Shown here piece by piece: positions 20,105-27,236 of a DNA stretch of 44,411 bases (its first letter is position 1; the number at the start of each line of letters is the position of its first letter). The DNA is taken from NCBI GenBank assembly GCA_020343435.1, contig CP070794.1, positions 33,891 through 78,301 on the forward strand. Direction: 5' to 3'. A program made the translations under genes and the position numbers. This stretch comes from an archaeon. GTDB lineage: Archaea; Nanobdellota; Nanobdellia; Pacearchaeales; UBA284. The notes under the pieces are model-generated. The model was given only the letters and a program-made list of their open reading frames with translations, did no database searches and had not been told where the DNA came from.

Positions 20105-23005
20105 ATGCCACATATAAAAAAATTGCATATGCATGGTTTTAAGTCATTTGCAAAACCAACAGAAGTCTTATTTGAAAATGGGATGAATATAGTTGTAGGA
20201 CCAAATGGTTCTGGTAAAAGTAATGTTGTTGATGCTATATGCTTTGTTTTAGGAAGATTAAGTGCAAAGAGTATGCGGGCTTCAAAATCAGCTCATTTAA
20301 TTTACAATGGTGGAAAACATGAAAAACCAGCTAGTGCTGCTAAAGTTAGCTTAGTTTTTGATAATACTGACAGAGGATTCTCTTTAGATGCTAATGATGT
20401 GGAGGTCTCTAGACATGTTAAGAGAGATGGGGCAAGCACTTATAAAATTAATAATGAAATTAAAACAAGACAAGAGGTTTTAGAACTGTTAGCTCAAGCA
20501 GGAATTGATCCCACAGGTTTTAATATTATCTTACAAGCACAAATTGATACTATCATCAAGATGCGTGCAGAAGAAAAAAGAGAGATTATTGAAGAGATTG
20601 CTGGGATATCTATATATGAAGATAGAAAAGTTAAATCCTTAAGAGAATTAGAAAAAACTGAAAATAAATTAAAAGAAATTAACACTATATTAAAAGAAAG
20701 ATCTGCTTTTATGAATAATCTAGAAAAAGAGAGAAAACAGGCATTAAAACATGAACATTTGAAAAAACAAGTTAAGAGATGTAAAGCTTCTGTAATAAAT
20801 AAAAAAATTACAGATAAACAGAAACAAGATAAAAAAATAGATTCAGATATTGGTGAAAAACAGAAAAGTTTAACTAAGTCTAATAAAAATATTGAAGATT
20901 CTAGAAATCAAATAGAACAAAACAATAAAAGAATTATAACCATAGAGAAAAAAATAGAAAAAGAAACAGGAATAGAACAAGATAAATTAAGAGAAGTAGT
21001 TTTAGAATTAAAAACAGACTTAACTGGTTTGAATATTAAAAAAGAAAATCTTAAAGATCAAATAGGGAATACAGTAAGAAAAGAAGAGAGCAATAACGAA
21101 GAAAAATCTAGACTTGAACAAGACATAAAAGAATTAGAACAAAAATCTAAAGTTAAGGTTAGTAAATCTGAAAAAGATAAATACGACGATATAACTCAAA
21201 ATATAGAAGAGTTAAAGAAACAATTACAAGATATAGAGTTAAAACAGAAATCTTGTGATCTAAAAAAATCAGAGATTGATAGAAAAGAATTATTTTTAGA
21301 AGAAAAAAAAAGAGAAAAGAAATCTTTACAAAAAAATATATCAGAATTAGAAAAAGAAATCTCAGAGATCTCTCTAAAAGATATCAATGAAGAAGAAATA
21401 AGAAATAAAAAACACCACCACCATTCTTTATTAAAAGATACTCAATCAAAGATCCATGCTATAGAAAGAGAAGTATTAAAATTAATAACTAAAAAAGAAA
21501 TTAATAAAAAAGATGTTGAAGAAATACTATCCTTAGAACAATGTCCCAAATGCAAACAAAAAATAACCAAGGATTATAAAGAGAAACTTGTAAAAGGGGT
21601 TTGGGAGACTATTAAGGGATTAGAAAGAGAGATAGAGAATAAAGAAAAGGATAAAAAAGAAATATACAAGGAAGTATTAAAAATATCTAAAGTTATAGAA
21701 GAATTTGTAGAAAAAGAGAAAGAAATAGCCCAGTTTTATGAACAAAAAAAGATTCTCAACTTCAAACAAACTCATTTAGACAAGGAAAAGAGCAAATTTG
21801 CAGAAATAGAAAACATTTGTGATTCTTTCAAGAATGAAATAAGTCAAATTAAGAAAGAGATTCCAGATTCTGAACGTTTAAACAGAAAACATATTGATTT
21901 GGCTAATAAAATAGAAAGATTAAAAGAAGATTTAGTCAAACTAAAACTCAAAAAACCAGTTCAATTATACATAGAAAGAGATTTTGATACAGAATCAACA
22001 CTAAAAAGAAGAGAAATTGAACAATGTTCTAGAAATGTTAAACAAGCTCAGCATGATAGATTAGAATTAGAATCAAAATTAGGAGAAACTTCTAAGAAAC
22101 TTACTCAAAAAAATAAACAATTAGCTACAAAAGAGAAAGAACAAGAGATTATCGAGGGTAAATTTAAGAAAATGATTTCTGAGAAACAATTCTTACAAGA
22201 AGAAAATCATAAGACTGGATTAAAAATAAACGAATTCCAAGTTGAGAAAAACTTAATCGAACAAGGAATTAATGAATTAAAGATAGATAAAGCTAGAACT
22301 GGAGCTGAAATATCTACATTAGATAATGAATTCAAAGAATTTGAAGGTACAGAATTAATAAAAGCAGGATTAGAAGAACTAGAAAGGAAGTTAAACAATT
22401 ATGAATCTCAGTTATCAGAATTGGGAAATGTAAATCTTAGAGCTCTAGAGGTTTACGACAAAGTTAGGGCAGAGTATGAAGCAATAGAGAACAAGGTTAA
22501 GAAGCTAAAAGAAGAACAAGAAGAGATTCTAAAAGTAATAGCTGAAATTGATAAGAAAAAGAAATCAGCATTTATGCAAACCTTTAATGCTATAAATAAA
22601 TATTTCTCAGAAAACTTTAATACCTTAAGTAGAAAAGGAACAGCATTTTTAGAAGTAGAGGATAAAAAAGATCCTTTTAATGGGGGGGTAAATATTCTTA
22701 TTAAACTAGCCAAAGGAAAATATATGGATTCTCATGCTTTATCTGGTGGGGAAAAAGTTATTGTAGCCTTATCATTAATTTTTGCTATCCAGAAATACAA
22801 ACCATATCATTTCTATATTTTTGATGAAATAGATGCTGCTTTAGATAAAAGAAATTCTGAGAAGCTATCTGATCTGGTTGGCAAAGATGGAAAATCTCAG
22901 TATATTGTTATCACACATAATGATGTTATGATAAATAATGCTAAGACAATTTATGGAGCATCAATGCAAGAAGGTAAAACTAAACTTGTCGGCCTAAAAA
23001 TTTAG
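20105..23005 (+). CDS. smc: SMC-family ATPase, short and apparently hinge-less, with central CxxC
   Basis: FKSF, GPNGSGKSN, Q-loop ILQ, LGNVNLRA, LSGGEK, FDEIDAALD, ITH; long coiled coils; CPKC at residues 480-483 of 966. Confidence 0.88.
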   Translation: MPHIKKLHMHGFKSFAKPTEVLFENGMNIVVGPNGSGKSNVVDAICFVLGRLSAKSMRASKSAHLIYNGGKHEKPASAAKVSLVFDNTDRGFSLDANDVEVSRHVKRDGASTYKINNEIKTRQEVLELLAQAGIDPTGFNIILQAQIDTIIKMRAEEKREIIEEIAGISIYEDRKVKSLRELEKTENKLKEINTILKERSAFMNNLEKERKQALKHEHLKKQVKRCKASVINKKITDKQKQDKKIDSDIGEKQKSLTKSNKNIEDSRNQIEQNNKRIITIEKKIEKETGIEQDKLREVVLELKTDLTGLNIKKENLKDQIGNTVRKEESNNEEKSRLEQDIKELEQKSKVKVSKSEKDKYDDITQNIEELKKQLQDIELKQKSCDLKKSEIDRKELFLEEKKREKKSLQKNISELEKEISEISLKDINEEEIRNKKHHHHSLLKDTQSKIHAIEREVLKLITKKEINKKDVEEILSLEQCPKCKQKITKDYKEKLVKGVWETIKGLEREIENKEKDKKEIYKEVLKISKVIEEFVEKEKEIAQFYEQKKILNFKQTHLDKEKSKFAEIENICDSFKNEISQIKKEIPDSERLNRKHIDLANKIERLKEDLVKLKLKKPVQLYIERDFDTESTLKRREIEQCSRNVKQAQHDRLELESKLGETSKKLTQKNKQLATKEKEQEIIEGKFKKMISEKQFLQEENHKTGLKINEFQVEKNLIEQGINELKIDKARTGAEISTLDNEFKEFEGTELIKAGLEELERKLNNYESQLSELGNVNLRALEVYDKVRAEYEAIENKVKKLKEEQEEILKVIAEIDKKKKSAFMQTFNAINKYFSENFNTLSRKGTAFLEVEDKKDPFNGGVNILIKLAKGKYMDSHALSGGEKVIVALSLIFAIQKYKPYHFYIFDEIDAALDKRNSEKLSDLVGKDGKSQYIVITHNDVMINNAKTIYGASMQEGKTKLVGLKI

Positions 23006-23319
23006 AATTGTACTGTAATTGGCCTATTCTTTAATTTTTCCATCTCTCTTATATATCTCTTAGTTCCTTCTACTGTTTTTATGTAATACAATGCTTTTTT
23101 ACATCTCTCAAAGAAAGAATTAATATTCTCTTTATTAACCCAAGGCATATTTATGAGATCCTCCATAAACACTCTAAAATCTTCAAGTAATTGTCCTGGG
23201 GATTTGTTTAGGTTAAAGACATATGGGATTTTCCCCCCAATCATACTATGTACTCTTATCCTTACCTTTACTTGACCTTTCTTTATATCAAGACTTTCAG
23301 ATTCTATTTCCCCTTGCAT
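23002..23319 (-). CDS. Hypothetical protein
   Basis: 105-aa ORF convergent with smc; TTTAAAAA TATA-like element ~25 nt upstream. Confidence 0.65.
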   Translation of the reverse strand: MQGEIESESLDIKKGQVKVRIRVHSMIGGKIPYVFNLNKSPGQLLEDFRVFMEDLINMPWVNKENINSFFERCKKALYYIKTVEGTKRYIREMEKLKNRPITVQF

Positions 23320-23350: not shown

Positions 23351-25744
23351 TTACTTTTTATTATTTTTTGGTTTTTCTTCAACTTCCTCTTCAAAGAATG
23401 AGAATATTTTTTTACCTAATCCAGACATTAAAATGATTATGATAATTATGATTACTATTGCTCCGATGATATACCCTTGATATGCTTTAAAGAAACTTAT
23501 CTTTGGTCCTGTTTCTTCTATTGTATCTCCAGTAATATCTGGGGTTTCTTCAATCTCTTCTTCACTCTCTTCCTCTTCAGCTTCTGCTTCCTCCTCTGTT
23601 TCTTCAGTTTCAACTTCTTCTTCTGGTTCTTCCTCCTCTTCTTCAAGAGTTTCTTCACCCTCTATAATAGTTATTTTAATCCTATTACTTGGAACAATGT
23701 TATCCCCATCACTTGTATAAATAGTCATATCCCTTTCTCCTTCAAAATCTATTGGAGCAGTTATTGTTAATTCATTTCCAGATATCTTAATTCCAATATT
23801 TAATGGTTTGATTGTTGTAAAGAATAAGTCTTCTCCTTCAGGATCTTCAAAATACTCTGAAAGATCTATTGTCATCTCTTCTCCAGTTTCTAATTCAATA
23901 TCTGGAATCTCTTTCAATAATTTTGGTTCTTTATTTCCCCCCTCTTTTTCAACATCTTCTACTGCTCTTGATCTGAATAAACTAGCAAAGAAATCTGCAA
24001 TAGCTTCAAAAAATCCCTTCTTTTTTGGTTTTTCTTCTTCAGTTATTGTATCTCCAGTTATATCTGGTTCTTCTTCCTCTTCTCCTTCTGGAGTTATTTC
24101 AGGACCTTCAATTTCTTTTAGTACTTTTACTTGAATTGTTGATGATGAAACAATTGTAGAATCTTTTAATCTTGCTGTTACAGTCAAATCATAGTTATCT
24201 ACTGTTGTTTCTATTGATGGAGCTAAATAAACGTAAAGTGTTTCAGCTTTTCCTGATTCTAGAGTTAATGTTCCTGGATTTATCTGAGAGAAACTTGCTG
24301 CTGTTCCTGAAAGTTCTATAATGTATTCAGCTGTTTTCTCTCCTTTATTCTCTAAATTAAATTGAATTGTGCCTGAAGAATCTCTATTAATCTCAAACAC
24401 ACTTTCTTCTGTAGTTAATTCTGGTTTGTAACAGTCCCCCACACTTATTGTTGTTAAAGTTAGTTTTGTATCATCTTCAAGTTCTGTTGTTGGATCTTTT
24501 GCTTTTACAATAATAGCATAATCTGCAGATCTCTCATCTTGGCCTGGAGCAACTGTTAATTGTATTTCTTGTTCTTTTCCTGCTTCAAGAGTTACTTCTG
24601 TCTCAGATAATGAAACCCATTCTGGCGCTGTTAATTGAATATCAAAGGTGTTTTCGAATTTTCCTGTGTTTCTTATTGTGACAGGGTAGGTATTTGTTAA
24701 TCCATTACAAATCTTATCCATTTCTTTTTCTAGTTCCACTGAAACACCATAACAAGAACTTACTTTTAATGATATATCTTCTTCTCTGAGAACCTTTCCT
24801 CTTTCAGAAAGAGTTTCAACATTTGCTGAAAAATCTCCTTCTGTCCCAAATGGAGGATTAATAATAAGATTAAAGAATTCTTCTTCTTCACTTTCAACCC
24901 TAATGTTTCTTTTATCTAAAGAAACCCAGGAAGGAGCATCTAGATTTATATCATAACTATTGTCTGCTGTTCCAAGATTTTTTATTCCAATTGGTAAGGT
25001 TATCCTTTCATCTTCACAAAGTTCCTTATAATTATCAGTATTTAATATATAATCATAACAAGCAGCAACTTCAAAATCAAAAGAAGCTGTTGCTTCAGCA
25101 TGTCTTGAATCAGATCTAACTTTGAACAAGATATCATAATCTCCTGAAACATCGCATGGAGCATTGATTTGTGCTCCGATATTCACAGAAGAATCTTTTG
25201 CTAATGTAAAACTAGTTCCTGACAAAGTTACCCAGGATGAACCTGCTCCTTCAACACTTAATCTATAATATTCCAAATAACTTCCTTTATTCATTAATGT
25301 TAATTCTACATTTGTTCCTTCACATGCACATATCTTATCTGATGAAGGATCAACTGTTAATTCTGTTCTATGACAGTTTTCTACGACAATCTCATGAGTT
25401 ATCCTTTTTGAATCACTTGACCCAGAGATTAGAATTTCAAGATTATAAGTTCCTGGAGCAATCCTTGTTGATGGAGTAATATAGATAAAAACACTTTTTG
25501 TTTGTCCTCCTTCTATGTAGAACCCAGAAGGGACAGCTGTTGAGAAAGTAGCAGCACTTCCTGATAAACTTATGGTAAAAGAATCAGAAACAGTAGATGT
25601 TATTTGCTCTTCTATTAAGATAGTTGATGAAGGACATACCACATTTGTTTCTAGTTCTGTATTTACAGATATAGTTGCACTTGCCTGAAACATAAATACA
25701 ATTAGCAATACTGCAAATAAAATAAATAAAATGTTTTTTTTCAT
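23351..25744 (-). CDS. Acidic surface protein with tandem Ig-like (CARDB/NPCBM-associated-like) repeats, cadherin-like domain and C-terminal TM anchor
   Basis: Signal peptide; repeated N.G....Y/F...W..L modules with paired Cys; DLSEYFEDPEGE; Glu-rich linkers; TM helix plus charged tail. Confidence 0.85.
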   Translation of the reverse strand: MKKNILFILFAVLLIVFMFQASATISVNTELETNVVCPSSTILIEEQITSTVSDSFTISLSGSAATFSTAVPSGFYIEGGQTKSVFIYITPSTRIAPGTYNLEILISGSSDSKRITHEIVVENCHRTELTVDPSSDKICACEGTNVELTLMNKGSYLEYYRLSVEGAGSSWVTLSGTSFTLAKDSSVNIGAQINAPCDVSGDYDILFKVRSDSRHAEATASFDFEVAACYDYILNTDNYKELCEDERITLPIGIKNLGTADNSYDINLDAPSWVSLDKRNIRVESEEEEFFNLIINPPFGTEGDFSANVETLSERGKVLREEDISLKVSSCYGVSVELEKEMDKICNGLTNTYPVTIRNTGKFENTFDIQLTAPEWVSLSETEVTLEAGKEQEIQLTVAPGQDERSADYAIIVKAKDPTTELEDDTKLTLTTISVGDCYKPELTTEESVFEINRDSSGTIQFNLENKGEKTAEYIIELSGTAASFSQINPGTLTLESGKAETLYVYLAPSIETTVDNYDLTVTARLKDSTIVSSSTIQVKVLKEIEGPEITPEGEEEEEPDITGDTITEEEKPKKKGFFEAIADFFASLFRSRAVEDVEKEGGNKEPKLLKEIPDIELETGEEMTIDLSEYFEDPEGEDLFFTTIKPLNIGIKISGNELTITAPIDFEGERDMTIYTSDGDNIVPSNRIKITIIEGEETLEEEEEEPEEEVETEETEEEAEAEEEESEEEIEETPDITGDTIEETGPKISFFKAYQGYIIGAIVIIIIIIILMSGLGKKIFSFFEEEVEEKPKNNKK

Positions 25745-25916: not shown

Positions 25917-27236
25917 TTAGTAGTAACTTTCTTCAGGTCTCTCTTCGTTAGCCCTTCTTGTTAAAAGTACTATAAGCAATATAACAATTATTGCAGCAAG
26001 TACAATTCCTATTGTAAGTAAAGCGTCTCTAAAACCGAAGTAACCTTTTCCATCTCCAACGTTTGCAATGAAGTTGAATCTTTGACTATCTTCTCCATGT
26101 TCTACTTCAACAGAGAATAAGTGTTCAGCTTCAACAGCATCACTCTCAACATTAACGTTGATAGTTACTAATCTACTTTCTCCTGGTTCGAGGTCAAATG
26201 ATGCAGGCAATACTTCTGTAGTTGCCCAATCTTCTGTGTTACTTACACTAACCAAGATTCTTTGTTCTGTTACATCGTTGTTTGCAACAATCAATGAGTA
26301 AGTTGCAGTATCTCCTGCACGAACATCATTTCTTGTTACTTGTGGTGTAACTTCAATGTCTCCACTGACAACACCATATCTTTCAACAACAAATCCAACA
26401 GTTTCCCAGGTTCTTAAATTCCTGTTGTATGCTTCAAGTTCAAGAGCATATGCTCCAGATTGTGCATTTCTTGGAATATCAAGAACTATTGTCTTGGATA
26501 CTGTATCCTCATCATCGTCATTATCGTAAGCTGCTAAGTCTCCTAAATAGAAAATTTGGGAGATTCCTAAATCAGCTACACTTGCTCTCAAGTAGACATC
26601 TTCAGCTTCTTCTTCACCTGTGTTCTTCACAACAACACTTGCTTCTAGCTCATCTCCAGCTTCAACAACTTGGTGTCTTAAGTTAAGATTCATTATTCTT
26701 AACTGTCTAGCTAATCTTTGGACAACTCCATCGATTTCAGCTTCGTTTACACCACTTACTCTATCATCTGCTTTGATTTCAACTTCCATGACAAAATCGT
26801 CTGTACCGTCTACTTTCCAGTCAGATGGTATGTCTAAAGATAAGAACTCAGCATATTCAAGTCCTGCATAGACATTGAATTTCCTTGTTTCATATCTTAG
26901 GTCTCCGCTGTTGTCGCTTATGTCAACAATAACTCTAGCATTATCAAGATCTGTTCTGGATTCAAAGATCACAGTTACAGGAACGTTTTGTCCACGTTCA
27001 AGTCCTGGAACAGCTACTTGTCTTCCTTCACACAAGTATGTAACTTGTGTGGTGTTGGTTAAGTTTGATGGTTCACACCATCCTTCCCAAACAAGTTCGC
27101 CTTTGACTCTTACCTTCATCTTAGTAATGTCAACGTTTGTTTCAGTCCATGTATCTGATGTAGTCACTGCCATAGACATAGCTGGAACTAAAAGCAATGC
27201 CAAAATGGCTAAAACTAAAAATGCTTTTGTGTTCAT
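25917..27236 (-). CDS. CARDB/Ig-domain membrane-anchored surface protein, putative S-layer-like
   Basis: Signal peptide, V.V.NTG...AEDV CARDB-like motif, acidic composition, C-terminal TM then EESYY; own promoter and terminator. Confidence 0.8.
   Translation of the reverse strand: MNTKAFLVLAILALLLVPAMSMAVTTSDTWTETNVDITKMKVRVKGELVWEGWCEPSNLTNTTQVTYLCEGRQVAVPGLERGQNVPVTVIFESRTDLDNARVIVDISDNSGDLRYETRKFNVYAGLEYAEFLSLDIPSDWKVDGTDDFVMEVEIKADDRVSGVNEAEIDGVVQRLARQLRIMNLNLRHQVVEAGDELEASVVVKNTGEEEAEDVYLRASVADLGISQIFYLGDLAAYDNDDDEDTVSKTIVLDIPRNAQSGAYALELEAYNRNLRTWETVGFVVERYGVVSGDIEVTPQVTRNDVRAGDTATYSLIVANNDVTEQRILVSVSNTEDWATTEVLPASFDLEPGESRLVTINVNVESDAVEAEHLFSVEVEHGEDSQRFNFIANVGDGKGYFGFRDALLTIGIVLAAIIVILLIVLLTRRANEERPEESYY

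Follow-up and report, generated by a model that had tools for sequence, protein, structure and literature searches.

The product of the gene at 20105..23005 of the window, the whole stretch of 44,411 nucleotides analysed here, is probably the housekeeping condensin Smc of a Pacearchaeota-type DPANN archaeon, in the form of a natural Smc/Rad50 mosaic. Judged from the sequence, its ATPase head and the head-proximal 55-60% or so of both arms are those of an ordinary archaeal Smc, and the apex of a Rad50 appears to have taken the place of the ancestral hinge together with the outer arms (about residues 350-820 in canonical numbering). The analysis directly shows the mosaic architecture, its conservation and its spread over the order, as well as ATPase motifs that are intact and the presence of ScpA and ScpB in the same genomes; this hook-type Smc (hook-Smc) presumably has condensin activity. 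A published description of a natural Smc with a Rad50 hook was not found, the closest case being the engineered Smc(Zh) chimera of B. subtilis. The gene and the parts of its product are as follows.

20105..23005, + strand: smc gene for the hook-type Smc, with an ATG start and 966 codons plus stop (TIGR02169 SMC_prok_A, 510 bits)
20105..20605, + strand: N-terminal half of the ATPase head, residues 1-167, from the sequence and from model strands and helices to residue 166
nt 20198-20221, + strand: Walker A GPNGSGKS, residues 32-39 (G32, N34-S39 and N40 invariant or near-invariant)
20606..21169, + strand: Smc-type head-proximal N arm, residues ~168-355, in canonical-Smc register (windows 141-360), with a helix break of the model at 348-353
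21182..21949, + strand: putatively Rad50-derived apex module, residues ~360-615 (distal coil, hook, distal coil), from Rad50 window matches, boundaries approximate
21542..21553, + strand: CPKC, residues 480-483, the proposed zinc-binding hook (C, P and C invariant), aligning with Rad50 hooks
22022..22627, + strand: Smc-type head-proximal C arm, residues ~640-841, in canonical-Smc register (windows 621-880), with a helix break of the model at 616-624
22628..23002, + strand: C-terminal half of the ATPase head, residues 842-966 (L879, S880, G881, G882, D907, E908, D914 and H938 invariant)
nt 22739-22756, + strand: signature LSGGEK, residues 879-884, from the translation
nt 22811-22846, + strand: Walker B / D-loop FYIFDEIDAALD, residues 903-914, from the translation

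The sequence-only reading had assigned the head of this 966-aa protein to Smc, not Rad50, on the basis of its motifs. These are all read directly in the translation (GFKSF at residues 11-15, GPNGSGKSN at 32-40, GNVNLRA at 774-780, LSGGEK at 879-884 and FDEIDAALD at 906-914), and the assignment is upheld by profile scores and trees. The head is complete, having Walker A, a Q-loop, the LSGG signature, Walker B with DE, a D-loop and an H-loop, and in an alignment with 116 relatives G32-N40, Q144, L879-G882, D907, E908, D914 and H938 are invariant or near-invariant. SMC_prok_A (TIGR02169) gives 510.3 bits and SMC_prok_B (TIGR02168) 476.1 bits, both below the curated equivalog cut-offs (729.4 and 567.35), versus 97.9 bits for the ASRP model and 91.9 bits for the best Rad50 model. 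In a head-only tree of 114 rows, 19 hook forms and four short forms constitute one clade (SH-aLRT 100) nested deep in hinge-bearing Smc. In a labelled head tree of 58 rows, which is a quick tree with SH-aLRT support only, 26 hook forms of the window's own order and four short forms make up a clade (99) within a clade (99) that also holds all 16 hinge-bearing Smc from other orders of the class. The Rad50 of the same genome forms a very long branch in head-only trees. Thus by its heads, as far as sequence comparison can tell, the hook-Smc is a true Smc. Membership in Rad50/SbcC was rejected (91.9 bits versus a model cut-off of 700 or more; D-loop DEIDAALD and not DEPT; no mre11 pairing), as was membership in ASRP, the ClsN/Sph family (97.9 bits versus the NF045487 cut-off of 300; 966 aa versus an architecture of ~600 aa).

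An AlphaFold2 model of the protein (mean pLDDT 81.3) consists, outside the head, of a long antiparallel coiled-coil arm made of helices 168-475 and 489-841, and contains no globular middle domain. The loss of the hinge proposed from the sequence alone is borne out not only by this model but also by profile searches of the protein, its relatives and the genome. In a Pfam scan the protein matches SMC_N (6e-45, residues 3-959) and generic P-loop families, and neither SMC_hinge nor Rad50_zn_hook is matched at E≤1. SMC_hinge (PF06470) is also unmatched throughout the 647,887-bp genome, a single contig that is 85.6% complete by marker genes, and matches none of the 52 family members scanned. The Gly-rich hinge motif is likewise absent from all 22 full-length hook-type representatives. 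In the comparison with TIGR02169 and TIGR02168 the best-scoring stretch ends at residue 479, immediately ahead of CPKC, which is consistent with the hinge being absent.

What occupies the place of the hinge was mapped with window scans, as full-profile hhalign of the hook-Smc against canonical Smc or Rad50 chains through the coiled coil and yields unusable boundaries. Windows 141-360 lie in the register of canonical Smc of the same class, with a probability falling from 99.4 to 64.6, and in a fine scan the canonical signal is gone beyond residue ~350. It reappears in windows 621-880, which are in register with columns 820-1076 of canonical Smc (probability rising from 55.8 to 99.6), and canonical Smc is thus alignable only with residues <~350 and >~640. 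Between these, five successive 60-aa windows (381-600) are collinear with the Rad50 of the same order at probabilities of 68.5-98.3, as compared with only 0.6-16 against canonical Smc, and the Rad50 signal of the fine scan spans residues ~361 to ~610. The apex at ~360-615 accordingly comprises the hook and about 100 aa of coil per side, in register with Rad50. As controls, 21 windows of canonical Smc reach a probability of no more than 12.4 against Rad50, and the hook-Smc's own proximal arms, which are matched in composition, no more than 26.

The hook itself was also compared with Rad50. In hhalign, 94-aa hook windows align with the order's Rad50 over 92 columns in register (probability 99.5, E 7.7e-23; ten arm-window controls, 0.1-29.7), a score that, like those of the mosaic window scan and of the module HMM described below, may be inflated by the similar composition of coiled coils and by the origin of both profiles, Smc and Rad50, in one AT-rich order. 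BLASTP aligns the hook-Smc with the genome's own Rad50 at 36% identity over 59 aa (E 2e-8), Cys over Cys, with CPKC on CPTC. A profile of 30 hook windows retrieves from the PDB as its top two matches the hook of P. furiosus Rad50 (6zff_A, E 2.1e-7; 1l8d_A, E 2.2e-6), covering 106 columns with CPKC on CPVC of both entries; a single-sequence search of PDB sequences with the 121-aa centre gives a best E of 0.58. Foldseek with the hook model also ranks the Rad50 hook 1l8d first, at E 0.022 and a TM of 0.41-0.44, with nothing at E≤0.001. This structural support is weak, because 1l8d sits among generic helical hairpins such as prefoldin and the LSD1 tower, which rank lower with a TM above that of 1l8d. 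The chimera proposed in the sequence-only reading is thus retained, the central ~250 residues being homologous to Rad50 in register. Its extent had to be revised, since not the hinge alone but the hinge and the outer ~40% of both arms are replaced. As for the origin of the graft, Rad50 of the same order reaches a median of 70 bits (n=30) with an HMM built from the module, and Rad50 of other orders a median of 27 bits (n=26); on this sequence comparison the rad50 of the lineage itself is the likeliest donor.

In the model, a short non-helical tip (residues 476-488) between the two long helices holds CPKC, as expected from the earlier placement of this motif at the apex of the coiled coil, and a model of the hook only (pLDDT 89.2) has helices 5-51 and 65-113. 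Among the seven Cys of the protein, CPKC is the sole CxxC. The proposed conservation of the motif in orthologs is also found: C480, P481 and C483 are invariant across the 116 aligned relatives, whose identity to the query is 40-70%; of the 120 top-ranking database relatives, 117 contain a central CPxC (the other three are ~800-aa forms); and all 30 best loci of the order have CPxC. The CPxC tip is beyond chance, since these three residues are unvarying in 116 relatives and CPxC recurs in 117 of 120. The spacing is also tightly kept, with 437-454 residues from Walker A to CPxC and 379-420 from CPxC to LSGG, the latter being exactly 382 in 72 of 114 sequences. Of the two Pfam models that had been suggested as a check, the hinge model gave no match, as predicted, whereas Rad50_zn_hook (PF04423) remained below threshold in the query (11 bits and E 0.29 when the genome was scanned). 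Over the CPxC of 52 family members, PF04423 matches 19 at E≤1, exceeds its cut-off in three and has no match at E≤1 in 33. A complex prediction for two copies of residues 425-540 with Zn gave a score of 0.13 (mark 0.42), a value that speaks in neither direction about binding. By analogy with Rad50, CPKC would bind zinc and the protein would homodimerise through the hook.

Among the sampled genomes, the hook-Smc was found only in one order, that of the window, in which close homologs bear the name Candidatus Pacearchaeota. Of 151 genomes from this order, 148 have a match to the protein. SMC_hinge occurs in 359 of 401 sampled genomes of the phylum, namely in none of the 30 from this order and in 359 of the 371 others. 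Conversely, full-length hook-type matches (E≤1e-140) were obtained in 29 of the 401, every one in this order and none among the 371 outside; the 12 hinge-negative sampled genomes beyond the order also had none at this threshold. Over 100 independent contigs, drawn from several sources, encode the architecture as a single open frame of 950-1020 aa, and single-contig genomes, including the window's own, are among the carriers. Relatives of ~800 aa with neither hook nor hinge fall inside the same head clade, and therefore a dimerisation module at the tip may be dispensable.

Other matches to SMC_N in the genome are limited to Rad50 and a 234-aa frame, leaving the hook-Smc as the sole Smc. It had been noted that no scpA, scpB or mre11 adjoins the gene. 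This is correct for the neighbourhood, which is unrelated and consists of a GT2 glycosyltransferase, proteins without a Pfam match and Ig-like surface proteins. The observation has to be supplemented, however, because ScpA, ScpB and Mre11-Rad50 are all encoded elsewhere in the genome. The two presumed condensin partners lie at these positions:

319819-320466 of the genome contig, strand not given: ScpA (kleisin)
313454-313903 of the genome contig, strand not given: ScpB (kite)

The co-occurrence with ScpA and ScpB that was to be surveyed holds across the order, ScpB being present in 144 of 151 and ScpA in 38 of 41 sampled genomes. The mre11-rad50 pair forms a separate operon 80 kb from smc, in which the end of a metallophosphatase (Mre11-type) gene overlaps the start of rad50; this Rad50 has 676 aa and the D-loop DEPTDGF. 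Rad50 is found in 40 of 41 genomes of the order.

The Rad50 likeness of the apex could have arisen by convergence, the hinge being lost and a Cys pair gained within Smc, in which case it would reflect coiled-coil composition and a short motif without any graft. Hooks are indeed short, the query stays under the Pfam threshold, the Foldseek match is weak, and off-register coiled-coil windows alone reach 20-28 in hhalign. Nevertheless, we consider convergence quite improbable, since five consecutive 60-aa windows (381-600) follow Rad50 collinearly and in register (probability 68-98) but lack a canonical-Smc match (0.6-16), the protein's own proximal arms lack a Rad50 match (≤26), the 94-aa hook windows reach E 7.7e-23, and the best PDB match, over 106 columns, is Rad50 of a distant organism (P. 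furiosus). That the mosaic is an artefact, either a chimeric assembly or a mis-called gene fusing pieces of smc and rad50, has almost no probability. Assembly from metagenomes and the presence of both parent genes in a single genome would speak for it, but over 100 independent contigs and 148 of 151 order genomes, single-contig ones included, show the same architecture, and the sequences have diverged to 40-70% identity with CPxC still invariant. This recurrence led us to reject an assembly artefact.

It is also unlikely that the protein has left the condensin function and become a repair, tethering or defence SMC-like ATPase, Rad50- or ClsN-like, that has Smc-like heads and works without ScpAB. 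Such a role would fit the Rad50-type tip and the location of smc apart from scpA and scpB, and PMC9389158 describes archaeal SMC-like proteins with a zinc hook (ClsN/Sph, ASRP) that organise chromosomes in another way. Against it, the gene is the sole Smc-class gene of the genome and of the order, ScpB and ScpA are kept in nearly all sampled genomes of the order, a separate mre11-rad50 operon is kept (with Rad50 in 40 of 41), the ATPase motifs are all invariant, and the ASRP score is 98 bits versus a cut-off of 300.

In the condensin reading, two Smc chains would be joined at the tip by one Zn2+ held by four cysteines from two CPxC motifs, as in Rad50, and the arms would then line up as a rod. 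ATP would engage the heads, which ScpA, the kleisin, would span with ScpB bound to it, and the resulting Smc-ScpAB ring would act on DNA without a hinge. The hook-Smc shares with canonical Smc-ScpAB the head motifs, the head phylogeny, the register of the proximal arms, the accompanying scpA and scpB genes, and its presence as one copy per genome. It differs from canonical Smc (SMC_N plus SMC_hinge) in the absence of a hinge, which hinge-bearing relatives of the same class have at about residues 517-634 of ~1140-1190 aa, in being ~200 aa shorter, in the CPxC hook at its tip, and in scoring 510 versus the cut-off of 729. With Rad50/SbcC it has in common the apex module, a CPxC on an antiparallel coiled-coil tip that appears homologous to the Rad50 apex of the order and to the P. 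furiosus hook; it is distinguished from them by its D-loop DEIDAALD (DEPTDGF in the genome's own Rad50), by scores of ≤92 bits with Rad50 models, and by a location not adjoining mre11. ASRP (ClsN/coalescin and Sph1/2; PMC9389158) are also archaeal SMC-superfamily ATPases with a zinc-hook motif for the hinge, but they constitute a separate family of ~600 aa, with which the hook-Smc scores 98 bits (NF045487, cut-off 300) as compared with 510 for Smc. A 'hinge-less' SMC cluster of marine Actinobacteria has likewise lost the hinge, and CXXC is absent from it according to the authors (Sussfeld et al. 2025, PMC12153180); that cluster is bacterial, whereas the hook-Smc is archaeal, has an invariant CPxC and is homologous to Rad50 at its apex.

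The closest counterpart is an artificial one. With Smc(Zh), in which the P. furiosus Rad50 hook stands for the hinge of B. subtilis Smc, cells grow normally on rich medium (Buermann et al. 2017, PMC5344682), and its authors regard the fold of the dimerisation domain as irrelevant to chromosome segregation in B. subtilis. Both proteins place Smc heads and arms on a Rad50 zinc hook. Some of the constructs in that paper also cut the hinge-proximal coil, e.g. 1-398/773-1186, and these truncations (398/773) resemble the natural junctions (~350/~820 in canonical numbering). Smc(Zh) is a bacterial laboratory construct, whereas the hook-Smc is a natural gene fixed across an archaeal order, with ~100 aa of Rad50 coil flanking the hook on each side. 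The survey of natural sequences in the same paper was seeded with hinge alignments and was therefore blind to hook forms. More generally, hinge-seeded surveys and curated Smc models, which score these proteins under the cut-off, under-call hook-type proteins.

It has long been asked whether the SMC hinge serves in dimerisation only, in DNA binding or as a DNA entry gate, and a dispensable hinge fold has been argued from chimeras made in the laboratory for B. subtilis and S. pombe (PMC5344682 and PMC6969161). The hook-Smc is a natural counterpart of those chimeras, a whole order relying on it with ScpA, ScpB and the ATPase motifs retained; what is new is that a Smc/Rad50-tip swap, so far known only as a laboratory construct, occurs in nature and extends past the hinge. 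It offers a natural test case for loop-extrusion and DNA-entrapment models that give the hinge a role, and its junctions and arm lengths, in over 100 diverged natural versions, can be compared with the periodic arm-length rule. It would also illustrate clearly how two paralogous SMC-superfamily genes can exchange a domain inside one lineage. The ~800-aa forms without hook or hinge further raise the question of the minimal tip for Smc.

Since the graft would have given Smc and Rad50 one kind of dimerisation module, cross-pairing of the two is conceivable. The hooks of Smc and Rad50 in this genome are both CPxC with similar flanks (SLxxCPxCKQ..s.dYK). We regard it as improbable that Smc and Rad50 of one cell pair through the shared zinc hook, or that their hooks have diverged under selection against such pairing. 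If hetero-hooks did form, the chromosome-folding machine would be physically coupled to Mre11-Rad50 break repair in these tiny cells. Across the order, the genes for both hook-Smc and Rad50 are kept.

The open frame at window position 20105..23005 (+) has 966 codons, and the Smc head motifs named for it in the sequence-only reading (GFKSF, GPNGSGKSN, GNVNLRA, LSGGEK and FDEIDAALD) are all seen in its translation. Its only CxxC, among seven cysteines in all, is the claimed CPKC at residues 480-483 (nt 21542-21553). The Pfam domain SMC_N spans the full length of the protein (residues 3-959, 6e-45). The claimed absence of a hinge also holds, as SMC_hinge is not found at E<=1 and the structural model is without a globular middle domain. 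Rad50_zn_hook is unmatched at E<=1 in the same Pfam scan. Of the NCBIfam models, SMC_prok_A gives 510 bits, below its cut-off of 729, with the best stretch aligning residues 3-479 to profile positions 1-477; SMC_prok_B gives 476 bits, ASRP (archaea-specific SMC-related proteins) 98 and the best Rad50 model 92. In the AlphaFold2 model (input of 116 relatives; mean pLDDT 81.3, pTM 0.43), two long helices, 168-475 and 489-841, hold CPKC between them in a 13-residue non-helical tip, with short helix breaks at 209-215, 348-353, 422-428, 586-588, 616-624, 747-755 and 772-783. The earlier observation on this gene is thus confirmed.

A word-indexed protein search finds over 100 relatives, 943-1006 aa long and 40-70% identical; those named are entered as 'chromosome segregation SMC family protein' of Candidatus Pacearchaeota, Nanoarchaeota or unclassified archaea, and database records label them plain SMC. 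A central CPxC is present in 117 of the 120 relatives listed, the remaining three being ~800-aa forms. C480, P481 and C483, for which a conservation survey had been proposed, are invariant in an alignment of 116 relatives, as are the ATPase residues. Spacing is tightly kept in the family, with 437-454 residues from Walker A to CPxC and 382 from CPxC to LSGG in 72 of 114 members. The best 150 matches of an exhaustive search over 1.84 billion representatives fall cleanly into two sets: the full-length single-stretch matches (946-1023 aa) all have CPxC and none has the Gly-rich hinge motif, whereas from ~483 bits downwards the matches are proteins of 1070-1200 aa, mostly with GDLxExSGAMxGG and in no case with CPxC. 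PF06470 lies at ~508-636 in all five canonical proteins scanned.

Certain hook-Smc genes are enlarged by ~520 aa, inserted close to the N-terminus (P0014, 1490 aa; P0126; P0137), and open frames of 1490-1516 aa occur in genomes G437, G438, G426, G493, G475, G519, G424, G483, G471, G488 and G506. In the insertion-bearing proteins, query matches start at residues 21-38, around Walker A. Precomputed Pfam matches of P0014 are PF14528 and PF14890, which we take to be homing-endonuclease and intein-splicing families, and the insertion resembles an intein sited in the P-loop or close to it.

The tip of hook-Smc is that of Rad50. The centre of the query and the Rad50 of its own genome share 36% identity in a 59-residue alignment (E 2e-8) that sets Cys against Cys. 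Profiles of the 94-aa hook window from 30 Smc and 29 Rad50 proteins of the order match over 92 columns in register (probability 99.5, E 7.7e-23), compared with 0.1-29.7 for ten arm-window controls. Against the whole PDB, the two top entries for the profile of 30 hook windows both show the coiled coil and hook of P. furiosus Rad50 (6zff, E 2.1e-7; 1l8d, E 2.2e-6), with CPxC on CPVC. Of 52 family members, 19 give a Pfam Rad50_zn_hook match over CPxC at E<=1, three of them above the cut-off, and none gives SMC_hinge. A hook-only model folds as a helical hairpin (pLDDT 89.2), for which Foldseek ranks 1l8d first, weakly (E 0.022).

The extent of the exchanged region was delimited by sliding 60-aa windows of the hook-Smc profile along two profiles, one of 16 canonical Smc of the same class and one of 30 Rad50 of the order.

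Segments of the query (P0001) and their matches
141-360: canonical Smc at the same positions, probability dropping from 99.4 to 64.6
341-400: neither canonical Smc nor Rad50 matched
381-600 (five windows): Rad50, collinear, 68.5, 94.0, 98.3, 70.0 and 82.6; canonical Smc 0.6-16
581-640: neither canonical Smc nor Rad50 matched
621-880: canonical Smc columns 820-1076, probability climbing from 55.8 to 99.6

As a composition-matched control, the proximal arms of the query itself reach a probability of at most 26 against Rad50, and 21 canonical Smc windows at most 12.4. A finer window scan locates the junctions at about residues 350-370 and 610-640, adjoining the helix breaks of the model at 348-353 and 616-624. 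To judge from these profiles, ~255 residues of Rad50 apex replace ~470 that made up the hinge and the outer arm on either side of it, so that the swap exceeds the hinge and accounts for the length difference of ~200 residues. An HMM of the module scores a median of 70 bits (37.5-95.8, n=30) against Rad50 of the same order and 27 bits (10-57, n=26) against Rad50 of the class's other orders, which is compatible with a donor inside the lineage; the scores may also owe something to shared composition.

The heads descend from Smc. Their phylogeny, proposed as a check, joins residues from both ends of each protein, 200 N-terminal and 215 C-terminal (114 rows of 415 columns; LG+G4, quick search). It takes the Rad50 of the query's genome as root and omits representatives of <740 or >1260 aa and ten failing a Walker A pattern. 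Nineteen hook representatives and four short forms make one clade (SH-aLRT 100), several nodes deep inside hinge-bearing Smc. In a second tree of the coded genomes (58 rows, LG+C20 PMSF, quick tree), 26 hook proteins of the order and four short forms form a clade (99) within a larger one (99) that holds all 16 hinge-bearing Smc sampled in the class's other families. On this nesting, the hook form derives from a hinge-bearing Smc of the class. A separate group of ~810-850 aa retains the hinge (P0185, P0204, P0208, P0213, P0215, P0227, P0232, P0233, P0237, P0238, P0254), and both members scanned have PF06470 at ~344-469. Each strand of their arms is shorter by ~165 aa, and ten members of the group make one clade in the first tree (SH-aLRT 98).

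The order also has, in several of its genera and families, Smc of ~780-810 aa in which CPxC and the hinge (PF06470) are both absent (P0038, P0057, P0076, P0122, P0136, P0140 and P0141; genomes G418, G427, G431, G436, G432, G435, G442, G429 and G404). They are without roughly query residues 378-578, about the extent of the Rad50-derived module, and are scattered in the hook clade of the head trees, two at its base and one nested within. The module may have been lost several times, or these forms may be what is left of an intermediate state.

SMC_hinge is present in 359 of 401 sampled genomes of the phylum (a tally that takes in six unpublished genomes, every one outside the order), but in none of the 30 sampled from the order. 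These 30 include the query's own genome, a single contig of 647,887 bp that is 85.6% complete by markers. Full-length query matches at E<=1e-140 are found in 29 of the 401, all in the order, and in none of the 371 genomes outside it. Among 151 sampled genomes of the order, 148 have a query match, mostly one full-length match each. ScpB and ScpA, whose co-occurrence had been proposed for survey, are found in 144 of the 151 and in 38 of 41, respectively; Rad50 is found in 40 of 41. The query's genome encodes all three away from smc, which no related gene adjoins, in agreement with the claimed absence of scpA, scpB and mre11 beside it.

ScpA, ScpB and mre11-rad50 loci on contig C1 of the query's genome (G000)
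C1:319819-320466: ScpA
C1:313454-313903: ScpB
C1:134555-137789 (L040:297-3531): mre11-rad50 pair, overlapping genes

The second hook protein of this genome has 676 aa, a CPTC hook and a DEPT D-loop. Its gene starts within the tail of a 407-aa metallophosphatase gene, so the two are an mre11-rad50 pair. Rad50 models (128 bits) and ASRP (119) score the 676-aa protein nearly equally and both below cut-off, so that it is named Rad50 for its operon and its D-loop. Short Rad50 of ~620-720 aa seems usual in the class. In another genome, the Rad50 match at G428:C17:2467-4466 is broken by stop codons, one piece having one TGA and the other three TGA, four TAG and three TAA; decay of this rad50 or a faulty assembly may be the cause.

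By analogy with Rad50, a single zinc ion with four cysteine ligands would join two Smc chains at the hook, and the remainder of the protein would presumably work like Smc-ScpAB. Such a zinc-joined Smc is plausible because B. subtilis Smc with the P. furiosus Rad50 hook in place of its hinge is reported to support normal growth in rich medium; the chimera is also described as obeying the arm-length rule (PMC5344682). The converse swap, Rad50 with the MukB hinge, reportedly worked in fission yeast (PMC6969161). A description of a natural hook-bearing Smc was not found in full-text searches covering the main text of openly accessible papers. The nearest literature found consists of these engineering papers, the ASRP paper (PMC9389158) and a 2025 report of a hinge-less SMC of marine Actinobacteria, which is reported to be without CXXC, unlike hook-Smc (PMC12153180).

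On the strand opposite to smc, a 105-aa ORF without a Pfam match (window 23002-23319, -) runs with its 3' end into the final 4 bases of smc. Two large predicted surface proteins (23351-25744, -; 25917-27236, -) both open with a signal-like N-terminus and close with a C-terminal membrane anchor; they also have Ig-like/FixG_C/NPCBM_assoc domains and acidic stretches rich in Glu.
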